Sequence record: PZ452594.1
Source: a phage
Direction: 5' to 3' (one strand)
Length of the DNA: 64,000 nucleotides
Part shown: positions 3,088 to 44,610 of the stretch, in pieces
How the letters are laid out: each line of letters opens with the position of its first letter
Numbering within the stretch: position 1 is the stretch's first letter
The notes under the pieces: generated by a model
Database searches by the model: none
What the model saw: only the letters and a program-made list of their open reading frames with translations
Told to the model about the DNA's origin: nothing
Program-made: the position numbers and the translations under genes

Positions 3088-4047
3088 TCACTTCCACTGC
3101 ATTTCGCACGCTAATTGAATGAAAAGATAAGCTAGATGCAATTCAGTATTAGCTGCAATACCATGATACTGATTATTTTCGCCGACAATTTCGTACATAC
3201 GAATAATACTCTGTGGAGTTACACGTGAATAAATTTCTTCGGCAAGTTTACCAACAAACCAAGAATAATCTGCTGCATATTTTGGTGCTAAAGCTCTGAG
3301 TTGTTTAACATCTTTATTTTTGAGAGACTCAAGAACATCATCAATAGCACCACGATCGTTAGTAACCAGTGATAAAATACCAGCATCCAAAACACCTTTA
3401 GATGAATAACTATCGAGCTCGCCAATAGTTTTACGAAAATCAGGAAAATTCTTTTTAACCAAAGCTGCTACAACTTTCATATCAGCTATAGCAATTCCTT
3501 CATGCTTGCAGATTTCAGTCAATCGACGAATCATCTGCTTCATCATTTCAATTTTATCTTCATCGGTCGGTTGACCGAATGTAATAACTCGGCAGCGTGA
3601 CTGAAGCGGTTTAATAATACCATCAATATTGTTAGCAGTAATAATAATACTACAGTTTGAACTATAAGCTTCCATAAAGGAACGAAGATGTCGCTGAGAC
3701 TCTGCTAGCCCTGAACGGTCAAATTCATCAATAACGATTACTTTTTGACGACCATCAAATGAAGCTGCACTGGCAAAATTAGTCAAAGGACCGCGAACGA
3801 AATCAATTTTACAATCTGATCCATTCACAAACATCATATCAGCATTTACATCATGACACAATGCTTTTGCTACAGTTGTTTTACCTGTTCCTGGAGAAGG
3901 AGAATGAAGAATAATATGTGGAATCTTACCTTTACTTGTAATAGATTTAAAGGTTTCTTTATCAAAGGCGGGAAGAATACATTCATCGATAGTAGATGGA
4001 CGATATTTCTGTTCAAGAATGTGTTCTTTTTCATTTACGGTAATCAT
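3088..4047 (-). CDS. 44: clamp loader ATPase gp44 (319 aa)
   Basis: Walker A GTGKTT; track start at 4062 is TTG; ATG at 4045-4047 preceded by GAGGAA gives MITVNEKEH. Confidence 0.9.
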
Positions 4048-4082
4048 AATTTCCTCATTCAAGTTTTAGTGTAAATTATAAA

Positions 4083-4094
4083 GGGCCGAAGCCC
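4083..4094 (-). terminator. GGGCUUCGGCCC hairpin between genes 45 and 44
   Basis: plus gggccgaagccc. Confidence 0.4.
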
Positions 4095-4098
4095 TCTA

Positions 4099-4785
4099 TT
4101 AAAAATCGTGGGTAGAATCAGCTTCAAGAGCTACTACATAATTCGCGTGTTCACCTTCAAATTTAGCAGCACCTTGTTTACCTTTTGCCCAGAGCAGAAG
4201 TTTATAATTTCCTGGTTGCATTTTCATATTTGCCATATTGATAATGAAATTAAATGTATTTTCACCATCATAATCACCAAGAGTCAAAGAATATTTAACA
4301 CGGGTCAAAGCAGAATCTTCCACTTTATTAAAACCGTTAATTACGATTTTACCTTCTTTTACTGTGATAGCAATTGTATCAATCTGCAGACCGCGAGATA
4401 CACGCAACAGCTGCTGAAGGTCTTCAGCTTTAATTTCAGTAACAACAGATGCTACCGGGAATGGAATTGGTTTATTAGGAGCAACTACTGTACTCGGATC
4501 GGCTGCTGGCCAAAAAATTGTTGAACGAGCATCAGCAATTTTAATATTTCCATCTTCTGACTGGGAAATTTCTGCATCATCATTAACTAGGGACAGAATA
4601 CCGAGAAAACCGTTCAAATCGTAAATCGCTACATCAAAATCAATAGTGTCAGAAATATTTGCTTCTGCATAAGTTGTACCATTAACTGCGCGAGTCATAA
4701 TAAATTGACCGGATTTAAGCATAATACCAGAGTTAATAGTAGCGAAATTTTTAAGCAGAGCAGTAGTATCTTTAGACAGTTTCAT
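4099..4785 (-). CDS. 45: sliding clamp gp45 (228 aa)
   Basis: MKLSKDTTALLKNFATINSGIMLKSGQFIMTRAVNG... matches T4 gp45. Confidence 0.9.
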   Translation of the reverse strand: MKLSKDTTALLKNFATINSGIMLKSGQFIMTRAVNGTTYAEANISDTIDFDVAIYDLNGFLGILSLVNDDAEISQSEDGNIKIADARSTIFWPAADPSTVVAPNKPIPFPVASVVTEIKAEDLQQLLRVSRGLQIDTIAITVKEGKIVINGFNKVEDSALTRVKYSLTLGDYDGENTFNFIINMANMKMQPGNYKLLLWAKGKQGAAKFEGEHANYVVALEADSTHDF

Positions 4786-31368: not shown

Positions 31369-31950
31369 CTAACCAAGCTTTTTAGTTAATTCATTCCAAT
31401 GTTTTCTACACAAAGAAACATAAATTTCATCACCAATACAGATTTGATTACCTTCTTTAACTGGTGTTCCATCTTCCATTAATCGAGCTGTCATAATCGC
31501 TTTTTTACCGCAATGACAAACTGCTTTTAGTTCAATAAGTTTATCTGCAATCGCTAAAAGTTCTTTAGAACCTTCAAACAATTTTCCAGCGAAATCAGTC
31601 CTTAATCCATAAGCCATAACAGGAACATTATATGTATCAACAATTCGGCTCAATTGATGCACTTGTTCAGTTTTTAAAAACTGGGCTTCATCTACAAATA
31701 CGCAATGAATATCTTTTTGTGCTTCAGCCCATTTATAGAACTCGAAAATATCCATATCATCTGTGATAATATTCGCTTCCTGTTTAATTCCAATGCGAGA
31801 AACGACTTCACAGACAGAGTCGCGAGTATCAATAGCAGGCTTAAGAACTAATACACTCATTCCACGTTCTTTATAATTATGTGCAGCAGTCAAAAGAGAA
31901 GCAGATTTTCCAGCATTCATTGCTGCATAAGTAAAAATTAAACTCGCCAT
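31369..31950 (-). CDS. tk: thymidine kinase (193 aa)
   Basis: P-loop NAGKSASLL; Cys pairs CHCGKK...CRKH typical of TK1-type zinc site. Confidence 0.9.
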   Translation of the reverse strand: MASLIFTYAAMNAGKSASLLTAAHNYKERGMSVLVLKPAIDTRDSVCEVVSRIGIKQEANIITDDMDIFEFYKWAEAQKDIHCVFVDEAQFLKTEQVHQLSRIVDTYNVPVMAYGLRTDFAGKLFEGSKELLAIADKLIELKAVCHCGKKAIMTARLMEDGTPVKEGNQICIGDEIYVSLCRKHWNELTKKLG

Positions 31951-31951
31951 T

Positions 31952-32140
31952 TTAGTCCTTAGTTAAATTTTCTAAATATGTTTCTAAATCATTTTCAGCT
32001 TTATCGATAGATTTTACTAATTCGTAATATGTTTCGGCATCTCCATAATCAGAAGATAATTCAAAAGACAAATCCTTTTCTAAACTAATAATTTCACCAA
32101 CTAAAAATAATATTTCGTTCTTTTGTTCGCGAGTAATCAT
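31952..32140 (-). CDS. small helical protein (62 aa); small-paralogue family
   Basis: MITREQKNEILFLVGEIISLEKDL... Confidence 0.4.
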   Translation of the reverse strand: MITREQKNEILFLVGEIISLEKDLSFELSSDYGDAETYYELVKSIDKAENDLETYLENLTKD

Positions 32141-32322
32141 AAAGAATTTATATAATCAATGAGTTCTTGTTCTTTATTATCGAATTCTTTAGAAAGTTCT
32201 TCGTATTCATTTGCATTAAAAGGACCGCATTCATCACAAACTTTTTCCAATTCACTGTTTTTATCCATAACTTCGTGGATAAGAGAAAAGAGTTTGTCTT
32301 TTTGTTCTTTGCTTAAACTCAT
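32137..32322 (-). CDS. small helical protein (61 aa); small-paralogue family
   Basis: MSLSKEQKDKLFSLIHEVMDKNSELEKVCDECG... Confidence 0.4.
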   Translation of the reverse strand: MSLSKEQKDKLFSLIHEVMDKNSELEKVCDECGPFNANEYEELSKEFDNKEQELIDYINSL

Positions 32323-32492: not shown

Positions 32493-32701
32493 TTCGGTTT
32501 ACCTTCTTTAACGAAATCTGGATAAGGATAAAATCCCGAATAAAATCCTTCACCTTTATGATTGATGCATCCTTTATTAGAACAATAGCACCAATAATCG
32601 AAATCACAAGCCATTTCATCGTTGCATAAAGCAAAAACAACCGGCCATTTACACTTTTCACAGTGGGCATTTTTAAGAATACTAGTTTGGCTCATAACCA
32701 T
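32489..32701 (-). CDS. Cys-rich small protein (70 aa), probable metal-binding
   Basis: HCEKCKW...CNDEMACDFDYWCYCSNKGCINHKGEG; preferred over the overlapping alternative frame 32485..32670. Confidence 0.4.
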   Translation of the reverse strand: MVMSQTSILKNAHCEKCKWPVVFALCNDEMACDFDYWCYCSNKGCINHKGEGFYSGFYPYPDFVKEGKPK

Positions 32702-32919
32702 GTCACCTTTAAGCAGTATTCTTCTACATGCTGTTTACGACCTTTCTTATCAATAAAGGTATATTCAACGAATGTTCCAATGTAGTCTTTATCTACATCA
32801 TGTGGACTATTAATTGGACATTTAGTACGGCAAATGCGTTCCCATTGACGAATAATTACTGCCTTATTCTTTGGGTCATACGGATGTGGATAATGTATAT
32901 TCATAATAACGGTTCCCAA
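32692..32919 (-). CDS. hypothetical protein (75 aa)
   Basis: ORF track. Confidence 0.4.
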   Translation of the reverse strand: MGTVIMNIHYPHPYDPKNKAVIIRQWERICRTKCPINSPHDVDKDYIGTFVEYTFIDKKGRKQHVEEYCLKVTWL

Positions 32920-33368
32920 TCAACAATCACAATTTCTAATTTAGAGGAATATGTATCTAAAATCCCCTCAATAATATCCCAGTTCCCTTTACCTATGCCT
33001 GCACCAATCCTAGGCATATAGATTGTAGGTTTAATCAGTTTATTTTCACCAAACTCATTTAATTCTAACATACAATTCATTAAAGCGGAATACTCAAAAT
33101 TTGGCCCTGGTTGAAATTGAGTATAAAGGTTGAAGCAATACGCTTTATGAGTCCTAAAGTATTTTTCATAGACTGAGTAAGAACCGAGTTTAGTTACATC
33201 ACCCCATTCAGTCTGTAATTTATCAGCTTCCAAAATTTTAGGGAAAGCTTTGGTTAATTGACCTGCGACTCCAGCTTTCATCGCGTGAAAACAATTACAT
33301 CCATGCGCAATATTTTTACCTTCAGCGAAAAGGGCGACAATATCGCCCTTGATATATTTTACAATCAT
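32901..33368 (-). CDS. macro-domain-like protein (155 aa)
   Basis: N-terminal GDIV...NIAHGCNCFHAMKAGVAGQL and C-terminal MPRIGAGIGKG resemble macro-domain Gly-rich motifs; ATG after GAGGA. Confidence 0.45.
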   Translation of the reverse strand: MIVKYIKGDIVALFAEGKNIAHGCNCFHAMKAGVAGQLTKAFPKILEADKLQTEWGDVTKLGSYSVYEKYFRTHKAYCFNLYTQFQPGPNFEYSALMNCMLELNEFGENKLIKPTIYMPRIGAGIGKGNWDIIEGILDTYSSKLEIVIVDWEPLL

Positions 33369-33712
33369 CTAGTACTCAATCCTCGATTATAAGAATCTAC
33401 CAAACGGTCAACCATTGAATGACAAGCGGCTTTATCTTTCTCCTCCGCAACTGAACATTCTAAGGTATTCCACTTTTTAGCATATCGTTTTAATAATGTA
33501 TCGTTTTTGTATCTACTTGATTTATCTCTTTCTCCGTCTTTATATGCATATATTAATTTCTGTGCAAATTCAGCTTGACATGCTTTATTTTTCCCACAAT
33601 AATCTGCCGCAGTGCGGTTTACATATTCTCTAATTTCAGTATATGATGTATCTGCTGATGCAGAAGCAGAAAATGAAATTAATCCTATACATAAAACCAA
33701 AATTTTAGTCAT
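33365..33712 (-). CDS. secreted/periplasmic small protein (115 aa), 4 Cys
   Basis: signal peptide MTKILVLCIGLISFSASASA then polar mature region. Confidence 0.5.
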   Translation of the reverse strand: MTKILVLCIGLISFSASASADTSYTEIREYVNRTAADYCGKNKACQAEFAQKLIYAYKDGERDKSSRYKNDTLLKRYAKKWNTLECSVAEEKDKAACHSMVDRLVDSYNRGLSTR

Positions 33713-34257: not shown

Positions 34258-34719
34258 TCATTGAGTTTTAATTACTGCTTTAGAAGCCTTTCCTGGTAAA
34301 CGACGACTGTTGATAATTGCCATCCTACATTGAAGTGACGGGTTTTTGAACTTCTCATTAGGTTTACAAACCGTAAATCCAAGCCAAAGATTTCCATCTG
34401 TAATTTCCAAACGCCCAGGACGATATTCAACCCCATCAATAAAATCCTCGTCAATGTCAGGACGCGGAGGCATACTCAGGAATTCATTAACTTCTAAAAC
34501 ATGGTCTTTTATTTTATGGAATAATTCAAAAACGTATGTCTCATCAATCTCCCGTTGAATTGCGCGATCAAGAAGATGCTGAGAATATTTTAGATGAAAC
34601 GATGAGACTCCTGCTGCTTTTGATGCCTCACGAATCTCATTGTTAATTTGACGAAACTCCGACTCAAAGTGACGACGAAGCTTATTTCGACGGATAAAAA
34701 CTTCTGTATTGATAGTCAT
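34258..34719 (-). CDS. regB: RegB sequence-specific endoribonuclease (153 aa)
   Basis: MTINTEVFIRRNKLRRHFESEFRQINNEIREASKAAG...; size matches T4 RegB. Confidence 0.8.
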   Translation of the reverse strand: MTINTEVFIRRNKLRRHFESEFRQINNEIREASKAAGVSSFHLKYSQHLLDRAIQREIDETYVFELFHKIKDHVLEVNEFLSMPPRPDIDEDFIDGVEYRPGRLEITDGNLWLGFTVCKPNEKFKNPSLQCRMAIINSRRLPGKASKAVIKTQ

Positions 34720-43153: not shown

Positions 43154-43228
43154 TGGTATCCCGCCCTGGGATCGAACCAGGACCGCAAACTTAGAAGGAT
43201 CGTATGCTATCCATTACACCAGCGGGAC
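43154..43228 (-). tRNA. tRNA-Arg (anticodon UCU), CCA encoded
   Basis: hand-folded GTCCCGC...CTTCTAA...GGTTCGATCC...GCGGGATACCA. Confidence 0.75.
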
Positions 43229-43233
43229 ATAAT

Positions 43234-43899
43234 TTAAAATTTCATTTTTCGACCTTTAAACCATCCTTCTGGAATTGGGTCAGTTTTCTTAATACGTTTA
43301 GAAACTTTTTCATCTAATGAATGAATCCACATCATACCAAATTGGGAATTCTTTTCACCTTTCTGGTGATTATTTTTAGCGTGAATTTCTTTCATTTTAT
43401 TAATAGTTTCAAGAGTATGATGCTTATTTAAAAATCTGCTATTATTTAAAAATTTTTCCTTGTATTCAGGAGTTGACCATAAACGTTTAAATACATTTGA
43501 ACCATTTTGACGATATTTTTCTTGAAGTAAAATATCATTTTTAAAACGTGACTTAAACGATTTAGCTCCTTTTAAACTAGCGTCTTTCTTCTGATTTAGC
43601 ATCTCAGGAATATTTATATGATCCCATCCGCCTTCACCGCCAAGTTTTAAATTATACACATCTGGTCTATTTAAAAACTCTTCTGTGACAATATTTTTCT
43701 CGGCTTCAAGCATAGATTCTTTATCATCAAAATATTCTAATATTTCTTTAGAAAAATTTTCTATACCATACCTGTCTTGGGCTCTTTTTAATAATTTACC
43801 AGAACCCATATATCCATCATCTAAATTTTCGGTAGAATGCACACCAATATAAATTTTATTATTAATTTTATTTGTTATTTTATAAAGATAAAAATGCAT
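43234..43899 (-). CDS. segB: GIY-YIG homing endonuclease (SegB-like, 221 aa) inside the tRNA cluster
   Basis: GIY-YIG motif FYLYKITNKINNKIYIGVHS; ATG at 43897-43899; the longer track ORF would overlap tRNA-Tyr. Confidence 0.65.
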   Translation of the reverse strand: MHFYLYKITNKINNKIYIGVHSTENLDDGYMGSGKLLKRAQDRYGIENFSKEILEYFDDKESMLEAEKNIVTEEFLNRPDVYNLKLGGEGGWDHINIPEMLNQKKDASLKGAKSFKSRFKNDILLQEKYRQNGSNVFKRLWSTPEYKEKFLNNSRFLNKHHTLETINKMKEIHAKNNHQKGEKNSQFGMMWIHSLDEKVSKRIKKTDPIPEGWFKGRKMKF

Positions 43900-43945
43900 A
43901 TCAGTCCTTAATAAAGAACTGAGCGTCTCACGACGAGTCATAAAT

Positions 43946-44032
43946 TGGTGGGGAGTGATGGAGTCGAACCACCCGAGTCGCAATGACAATGAATTTACAG
44001 TCCACACCGCTACCTCTACGGGATAACTCCCC
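43946..44032 (-). tRNA. tRNA-Tyr (anticodon GUA), long variable arm, CCA encoded
   Basis: hand-folded: acceptor GGGGAGT/ACTCCCC, anticodon loop CTGTAAA, T-loop TTCGACT. Confidence 0.6.
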
Positions 44033-44041
44033 TAATTAATT

Positions 44042-44118
44042 TGGTGACCCAGACCAGATTTGAACTGGTAACCTTTCCCTTATGAGGGGACTGCTGCTAA
44101 CCATTGAGCTACAGGGCC
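44042..44118 (-). tRNA. tRNA with CAU anticodon (Ile by T4 analogy, or Met), CCA encoded
   Basis: anticodon loop CTCATAA; T-arm ACCAG-TTCAAAT-CTGGT. Confidence 0.6.
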
Positions 44119-44119
44119 T

Positions 44120-44195
44120 TGGTGCTGATTGACGGAATCGAACCGCCGACCTTCTCATTACAAGTGAGTTGCTCTACCTACTGAGCTAAATCAGC
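44120..44195 (-). tRNA. tRNA-Thr (UGU), CCA encoded
   Basis: anticodon loop CTTGTAA; acceptor GCTGATT/AATCAGC. Confidence 0.75.
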
Positions 44196-44197
44196 AA

Positions 44198-44284
44198 CGG
44201 AGGCGATAGGATTCGAACCTATGAATCGCCGGAGCGACTGCCGGTTTTCAAGACCGGTGCATTAAACCACTCTGCCACGCCTCC
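44198..44284 (-). tRNA. tRNA-Ser (UGA), long variable arm, CCA not encoded
   Basis: anticodon arm CCGGT-CTTGAAA-ACCGG; acceptor GGAGGCG/CGCCTCC. Confidence 0.75.
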
Positions 44285-44286
44285 AG

Positions 44287-44360
44287 TCTCCATACAAGGA
44301 TTTGAACCTTGGACCTCCTGATCCCAAATCAGGCGCTCTACCAAACTGAGCTACACGGAG
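44287..44360 (-). tRNA. tRNA-Pro (UGG), CCA not encoded
   Basis: anticodon arm CCTGA-TTTGGGA-TCAGG; T-arm CAAGG-TTCAAAT-CCTTG. Confidence 0.7.
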
Positions 44361-44370
44361 TAAATTAAAT

Positions 44371-44444
<74 letters not shown>

Positions 44445-44449
44445 AAATT

Positions 44450-44536
44450 TGGTGCGAGAAGTGGGACTCGAACCCACAAGGAAATCATTCCGCAGCATTT
44501 TAAGTGCTGTGCCTTTACCAATTTGACCATTCTCGC
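44450..44536 (-). tRNA. tRNA-Leu (UAA), long variable arm, CCA encoded
   Basis: anticodon arm CAGCA-CTTAAAA-TGCTG; acceptor GCGAGAA/TTCTCGC. Confidence 0.75.
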
Positions 44537-44537
44537 G

Positions 44538-44610
44538 CTGGGAATAAAGGACTCGAACCTTTGCATCCTGGAATCAAAATCCAGTGCCTTACCAACTTGG
44601 CTAATTCCCA
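44538..44610 (-). tRNA. tRNA-Gln (UUG), CCA not encoded
   Basis: anticodon arm CTGGA-TTTTGAT-TCCAG; T-arm AAAGG-TTCGAGT-CCTTT. Confidence 0.75.

Follow-up and report, generated by a model that had tools for sequence, protein, structure and literature searches.

The role of the phage T4 gene tk.4, also called adfM (anti-DarT factor Macrodomain), against DarTG2 was already known before the present analysis. T4 lacking both adfA and adfN is still resistant to DarTG2, from which a further factor was predicted (PMC11825919). When a saturated T4 transposon library was used on DarTG2-expressing E. coli (HIDEN-SEQ), tk.4 was the single significant hit (10.1101/2025.11.20.689424). The same November 2025 bioRxiv preprint reports that a clean tk.4 knockout sensitised T4 to DarTG2, and the name adfM was given because T4 needs the gene for DarTG2 resistance; its authors describe Tk.4 as structurally similar to M. 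tuberculosis DarG and word the removal of ADP-ribose from DNA by AdfM as something that ‘seems likely’ (10.1101/2025.11.20.689424). No assay of purified Tk.4 was found in the literature on AdfM, on DarTG2 with phage T4, or on SCO6735.

Two further proteins provide biochemical reference points. PhiKZ gp104, which also bears the name AdfM, takes DarT2-made ADP-ribose off DNA in vitro; mutation of its conserved active-site Asn lowers this activity, and ‘gp104 N23A’ is among the constructs listed (PMC13309987). SCO6735 cleaves DarT-made ADP-ribosylated thymidine in DNA (dT-ADPr), not dG-ADPr, and rescues E. coli from DarT (PMC9411070). Its Q85A variant is wholly inactive and N27S nearly so, and a water-mediated mechanism without a lysine was proposed; in addition, SCO6735 inhibits DarT via direct interaction (PMC9411070). 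The view that T-even phages carry one eraser per DarT lesion type, with the NADAR protein AdfN acting on guanosine and the macrodomain protein AdfM on thymidine, is likewise already in the literature.

The tk.4 gene and its surroundings

We analysed a stretch of 64,000 nucleotides of phage DNA (PZ452594.1), hereafter the window, which is of Tequatrovirus type. The ORF under study is flanked by vs and tk.3 in just the same way as in T4 and is the orthologue of phage T4 tk.4. Its neighbourhood comprises the following features:

31369..31950, minus strand: thymidine kinase gene (tk), neighbour gene
31952..32140 and 32137..32322, minus strand: pair of DUF7438 ORFs (Pfam)
between the DUF7438 pair and tk.3, minus strand: phage zinc-binding ORF, neighbour gene
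32692..32904, minus strand: tk.3, DUF7202 (Pfam)
32901..32904, minus strand: ATGA, overlap of the tk.4 stop and the tk.3 (DUF7202) start (sequence, Pfam, T4T annotation)
32901..33368, minus strand: tk.4 / adfM coding sequence, ATG-initiated ORF of 155 aa with one macro domain
33365..33368, minus strand: ATGA, overlap of the vs stop and the tk.4 start (sequence and ORF coordinates)
about 11-12 nt upstream of the tk.4 start, within vs, minus strand: GAGG, Shine-Dalgarno-like element (sequence)
33365..33712, minus strand: vs (valyl-tRNA synthetase modifier), directly upstream of tk.4
between vs and RegB, minus strand: vs.1, SLT-domain protein, neighbour gene
34258..34719, minus strand: RegB, neighbour gene

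The order regB, vs.1, vs, tk.4, tk.3 ... tk is the same in the window and in the annotated records of T4T and JK38, and T4 has the same gene with the same neighbours (vs upstream, tk.3 downstream) and the same overlapping start and stop codons. Such tight packing of ORFs is typical for T4-type early gene blocks. The translated product of 32901..33368 (MIVKYIKGDIVALFAEGKNIAHGCNCFHAMKAGVAGQL...MPRIGAGIGKGNW...EPLL) contains all the motifs from which the original prediction had proposed a macro domain, and the placement of the ORF in a tk-regB region, made at the same time, agrees with the neighbour order, with all of these genes on the minus strand. Tk.4 of the window is identical to Tk.4 of T4T at 152 of 155 positions (98.1%, gapless), 100% identical in the Shigella phages SH7 and JK38, and a member of the same 90% protein cluster as T4 AAD42667.1 and ADJ39830.1. 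A megablast search with the ORF matched 650 phage records, nearly all of them from Tequatrovirus and relatives, many of which already carry the labels ‘macro domain protein’, ‘tk.4’ or ‘phosphatase’. The T4T record bears the note ‘Tk.4; contains A1pp phosphatase motif’, so the macro-domain nature of tk.4 has been on record since the annotation of the T4 genome.

Among the neighbours, vs (33365..33712) matched no Pfam family; it is the T4 gene most depleted in M9-glucose minimal medium versus LB, according to a figure legend (10.1101/2025.11.20.689424). The two small adjoining DUF7438 ORFs downstream of the tk.4 block (31952..32140 and 32137..32322) are paralogues.

Sigma-70-like matches between 31000 and 36500 showed no excess (23 versus 21.2 in shuffles), and the minus strand from tk.4 to 43688 had no MotA-box match; we therefore claim no promoter for tk.4. 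Across the whole window and on both strands, the MotA-box-plus-minus-10 pattern TGCTTNA-N11-13-TANNNT occurred 22 times versus 4.7 expected, a count reached in 0 of 100 shuffles. These matches lie mostly on the minus strand and, as predicted elements, are consistent with T4 middle promoters. Within codons 7-13 of tk.4 lies a hairpin whose palindrome is perfect over 8 bp, AAGGGCGA-caata-TCGCCCTT (33330..33350). On the plus (antisense) strand a run rich in T follows it, and the hairpin was picked out as terminator-like; this stretch has no differences from the T4 allele. Elsewhere in the window, nine tRNA genes (Arg, Tyr, Met, Thr, Ser, Pro, Gly, Leu and Gln) occupy 43154..44610 on the minus strand, as expected for a T4-type genome. 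T4 is usually credited with eight tRNAs, and the set in the window may differ slightly.

Fold, class and active site of Tk.4

Several independent searches identify Tk.4 as a macro domain. Pfam Macro (PF01661) matched with 24.3 bits, above its gathering threshold of 22, over positions 2-113 of the 118 in the model; PHROG 335 matched with 3e-64 and the PADLOC DarG model with 1.2e-7. A search with the single sequence already recovered the solved macro domains of BT1257, Poa1p, SCO6735, TARG1 and DarG. The family profile, built like all column statistics below on 81 phage and metagenome homologues, matched 16 PDB macro-domain sequences at E <= 1e-3 and reached E values of 3e-21 to 2e-13 for the same five proteins. 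An AlphaFold2 model computed on the 81-homologue alignment had a mean pLDDT of 95.1 and a pTM of 0.90, Foldseek assigned it a probability of 1.0 to the macro domains of TARG1, Poa1p, BT1257 and DarG, and Tk.4 has the three-layer alpha/beta/alpha macro fold. The assignment that had been guessed from motifs is thus confirmed by Pfam, profile and structure comparison.

The profile and fold matches place Tk.4 in the ALC1-like class (TARG1/DarG/SCO6735) and not in the MacroD/YmdB class. YmdB and DarG had both been put forward for comparison; the DarG group is indeed close, whereas YmdB does not represent the closest class, as the scores of E. coli YmdB (1SPV) and of MacroD-type domains are much lower than those of the group of TARG1, DarG, BT1257 and Poa1p. 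The candidate relatives cannot be told apart by their fold scores, since Poa1p, a phosphatase, equals DarG in score. The active-site and binding-loop residues lie in three segments of Tk.4, the first of which also contains most of the differences from the T4 allele:

33261..33305, minus strand: loop 1, active site, HGCNCFHAMKAGVAG, residues 22-36 (translation, column statistics, alignment)
33264..33285, minus strand: 22-nt mosaic patch, codons 28-35, inside loop 1 (nucleotide and protein comparison)
33117..33131, minus strand: NLYTQ motif, residues 80-84 (translation, alignment)
32979..33014, minus strand: loop 2, diphosphate-binding, PRIGAGIGKGNW, residues 119-130 (translation, column statistics, alignment)

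In the alignment, both Gly-rich loops match their counterparts in solved macro domains, and Tk.4 carries them as predicted ADP-ribose-binding loops together with the conserved Asn that is expected to contact the distal ribose. In loop 1, N25 is found in 80 of the 81 family members, and G33 and A35 in all of them (81/81 each); Asn25 aligns with Asn27 of SCO6735 and Asn23 of PhiKZ gp104. P119 and G122 of loop 2 are invariant in the family, and conservation reaches 90% or more at G124, G128 and W130. The NLYTQ motif places Gln84 where TARG1 (K84) and DarG (K80) have their catalytic Lys and SCO6735 has Gln85. This Gln is invariant in the 81 phage and metagenome homologues (81/81) and in the bacterial homologues (80/80, the best 80 of at least 366 loci). 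The motif at this position reads ‘LYTQ’ in Tk.4, ‘LITK’ in TARG1, ‘FPTK’ in DarG and PhiKZ gp104, and ‘MIGQ’ in BT1257 and SCO6735. In the alignment with solved relatives, Gly126 of Tk.4 occupies the position of the catalytic Asp125 of TARG1.

The equivalent of Gln84 is common to Tk.4 and the Gln-type ALC1-like macrodomains SCO6735 (PDB 5E3B) and BT1257 (PDB 2FG1/2AFC), and SCO6735 also has the equivalent of Asn25. SCO6735 and BT1257, however, have an insertion of 5-6 residues after the Gln, which Tk.4 does not have; their subclass is characterised by a ‘mobile loop’ that exceeds that of DarG and TARG1 by five residues. Bacterial Tk.4-like proteins fall in between, with 10 residues versus 7 in Tk.4. 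The authors of the SCO6735 study tie the longer ‘mobile loop’ to the high activity on DNA, and the backbone of Val/Ile25 places the proposed catalytic water (PMC9411070). Where SCO6735 has Val25, Gly23 is found in 80 of the 81 Tk.4 family members, Tk.4 included. As judged from the alignment, Tk.4 would accordingly fit only part of the definition of the SCO6735 subclass, namely the Gln and the Asn, and not the mobile loop or Val/Ile25.

DarG (PDB 5M3E, 5M3I and 7OMU) has its catalytic Lys80, in the numbering of T. aquaticus DarG, within FPTKxHWR, where Tk.4 has Gln. It further possesses a C-terminal DarT-binding domain, with a full length of ~330-400 aa, and adjoins darT; Tk.4 is 155 aa long and has neither feature. 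The NCBIfam DarG equivalog model gave 24.9 bits on Tk.4 versus a cut-off of 250 (model positions 2-146 of 338). Tk.4 is DarG-like in biological terms, yet outside the DarG family by its defining features. PhiKZ gp104 resembles Tk.4 in being a stand-alone phage macrodomain that counters DarTG2, but it is of DarG type, with an E value of 9e-25 against M. tuberculosis DarG, and has retained the lysine of FPTK, whereas Tk.4 is of Gln type. It is moreover imported into the phage nucleus, a structure that T4 does not have. The two proteins are only remotely similar (BLASTP E 0.019; hhalign probability 96%) and, by sequence, the two ‘AdfM’ proteins are separate macrodomain lineages that would represent independent acquisitions. 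Human TARG1/OARD1 uses a Lys84/Asp125 dyad, for which Tk.4 has Gln84 and Gly126, and yeast Poa1p, which acts on Appr1p, has Ser at the position of Gln84.

The window and T4 alleles of tk.4 differ at 16 of 468 nucleotides, 11 of which fall within nt 84-105 of the gene, that is, within the mosaic patch in loop 1. The patch changes FHTMGSG of T4 into FHAMKAG and accounts for all three amino acid differences of the protein (T29A, G31K and S32A relative to T4). The published DarTG2 genetics refer to the T4 allele, from which the window allele differs at these three binding-loop residues. The same patch is present in 47 phage records, including T6, SH7, JK38, wV7, AR1, RB51 and RB68. At position 31 of the Tk.4 family, Lys is the minority residue (6/81) and Gly the common one (62/81). 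Its sequence suggests either a short recombined segment or a variant of the loop favoured by selection, and the MGSG and MKAG alleles may form a natural variant pair that bears on substrate or DarT2 specificity.

Proposed function of Tk.4

Taken together with the published work, the most probable function of Tk.4 is that of a stand-alone, 155-aa macro domain that erases dT-ADPr from DNA and enables replication in DarTG2 hosts, with SCO6735-like chemistry. The original prediction had suggested that a phage macro domain could reverse DarT-type ADP-ribosylation, and this reading gains support from the T4 tk.4 genetics in the literature and from the in vitro activity of PhiKZ gp104; for Tk.4 itself, we infer the enzymatic activity and the Gln-type mechanism. 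According to this model, tk.4 would be expressed within the densely packed, translationally coupled regB-vs-tk gene block. DarT2 would ADP-ribosylate thymidines of the single-stranded phage DNA, and Tk.4 would hold the ADP-ribose with loop 1 (HGCN...M-x-x-G-x-A) on one side and loop 2 (P-x-I-G-x-G-x-x-x-G-x-W) on the other. Hydrolysis of the ribose-thymine N-glycosidic bond would then release ADP-ribose and restore a replicable template. Since Tk.4 has Gln84 in place of the catalytic Lys, no counterpart of Asp125, and a retained Asn25, we predict a chemistry like the water-mediated one without Lys that was put forward for SCO6735, rather than that of DarG and TARG1. To the published picture, the present analysis adds the prediction that Gln84 and Asn25, rather than a lysine, are essential in Tk.4.

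Three other explanations were weighed against the eraser model, and none of them accounts better for a single, DarTG2-specific phenotype. Most database names derive from the idea of metabolite clean-up, in which Tk.4 would act on small-molecule substrates as an ADP-ribose-1''-phosphate phosphatase similar to Poa1p or as an O-acetyl-ADP-ribose deacetylase. The fold similarity to Poa1p speaks for such a function, but the phosphatase, A1pp and deacetylase labels were transferred by homology, and Poa1p has Ser where Tk.4 has its invariant Gln84 and Phe152 where Tk.4 has Gly126. SCO6735, the closest characterised Gln-type relative, prefers DNA-thymidine-ADPr, and the sole known phenotype of tk.4 is specific to DarTG2. 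The RNA repair of T4 (Pnk/Rnl1) is not known as a source of Appr1p either. We consider metabolite clean-up highly improbable. T4-type phages also encode ADP-ribosyltransferases, a point of the original prediction that favours a protein de-ADP-ribosylase reversing the marks of Alt, ModA and ModB or of host toxins, with the DarTG2 phenotype as a secondary effect or one role among several. Alt, ModA and ModB of T4 target arginine, however, and we know of no report of arginine-linked ADP-ribose as a substrate of the ALC1-like macro-domain class. Tk.4 is equally close to TARG1/SCO6735 and to DarG, and TARG1 and SCO6735 hydrolyse Glu/Asp-linked protein ADP-ribose besides dT-ADPr DNA (PMC9411070). 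Against this, SCO6735 strongly favours DNA over protein in competition, and tk.4 behaves as dispensable without DarTG2 and as the single hit with it. We regard this explanation as very unlikely, while by analogy with SCO6735 and TARG1 the reversal of protein ADP-ribosylation may possibly be a side activity of Tk.4.

Protection without catalysis is conceivable because SCO6735 inhibits DarT directly: Tk.4 could bind and inhibit DarT2, or occupy the ADP-ribosylated sites, without hydrolysis. The variants SCO6735 Q85A, DarG K80A and TARG1 K84A all inhibit DarT in vitro, SCO6735 most strongly (PMC9411070), and the Lys of DarG and TARG1 is absent from Tk.4. A pure binder, however, would not need the catalytic residues of SCO6735, and those that can be aligned (the Gln, the Asn and the Gly-rich loops) are invariant or nearly so in more than 160 Tk.4-type sequences. 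Tk.4 also lacks anything equivalent to the C-terminal domain with which DarG binds DarT. A purely non-catalytic antagonist consequently appears very improbable as well. If Tk.4 is a DNA eraser, the labels ‘phosphatase’, ‘O-acetyl-ADP-ribose deacetylase’ and ‘hypothetical protein’ are outdated for a family that ~5% of sequenced phage records contain.

Distribution and origin of Tk.4-type proteins

Using tblastn, we found relatives of Tk.4 in 2816 of 50,697 phage records, among them Straboviridae of many hosts, Felixounavirus, Ackermannviridae-like phages, and Pseudomonas and Vibrio phages. A scan of bacteria with one genome per species yielded at least 366 Tk.4-type loci, and the signature residues are invariant in the best 80 of these. 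No recurrent neighbour or partner toxin was found beside the bacterial genes in these best 80 of at least 366 loci, where the largest neighbour cluster comprised 6 of the 80; from its Walker and signature motifs, this cluster looks like a housekeeping-type ABC-transporter ATPase. An origin of the family as an ‘orphan DarG antitoxin’ was rejected, as no DarT-like partner recurred beside the best 80 bacterial loci, with the qualification that neighbours were clustered by similarity only and a rare DarT pairing could escape. As no neighbour recurred at these loci, the Tk.4 type is more readily seen as a widespread eraser that stands alone than as an antitoxin separated from its toxin.

In our judgement the balance is even on whether T4-type AdfM is not a captured DarG but part of an unnamed, Gln-type stand-alone clade (HGCNC...NxYTQ...PxIGxGxxGGxW) that would remove dT-ADPr without a Lys, in the manner proposed for SCO6735, with a shortened mobile loop. 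If so, thousands of phages and hundreds of chromosomes of bacteria would carry members of the clade, and T4 Tk.4 and PhiKZ gp104 would be convergent recruitments with different chemistry. The MGSG/MKAG patch would then be a sign that selection or recombination is still under way where the protein contacts its substrate or DarT2.

Three homologues that might have passed for cellular proteins turned out to have phage-like contexts and are therefore uninformative on a cellular function. Two proteins labelled as bacterial MAG proteins (P0053 and P0056) come from contigs of T4-like phages, where their genes have Rnl1 and a Dda-like helicase as neighbours, and an unnamed metagenome protein (P0062) is located near an rIIB gene. 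On the MAG-labelled but T4-like contigs L003 (Bacilli bacterium) and L004 (Cetobacterium sp.), the macro gene has an Rnl1-type RNA ligase region on one side and a Dda-like helicase on the other, a position that differs from the tk-vs block of T4.

At two bacterial loci, an ORF that is NADAR/YbiA-like by its motifs (FLSNF...WPTVEHYFQAQKF) lies directly upstream of the Tk.4-type gene:

3549..3989, plus strand, locus L044: NADAR/YbiA-like ORF by motifs, with the macro gene at 4001..4459; one further locus is similar

If confirmed, this NADAR-macro pairing would place erasers for two kinds of ADP-ribose lesion side by side.
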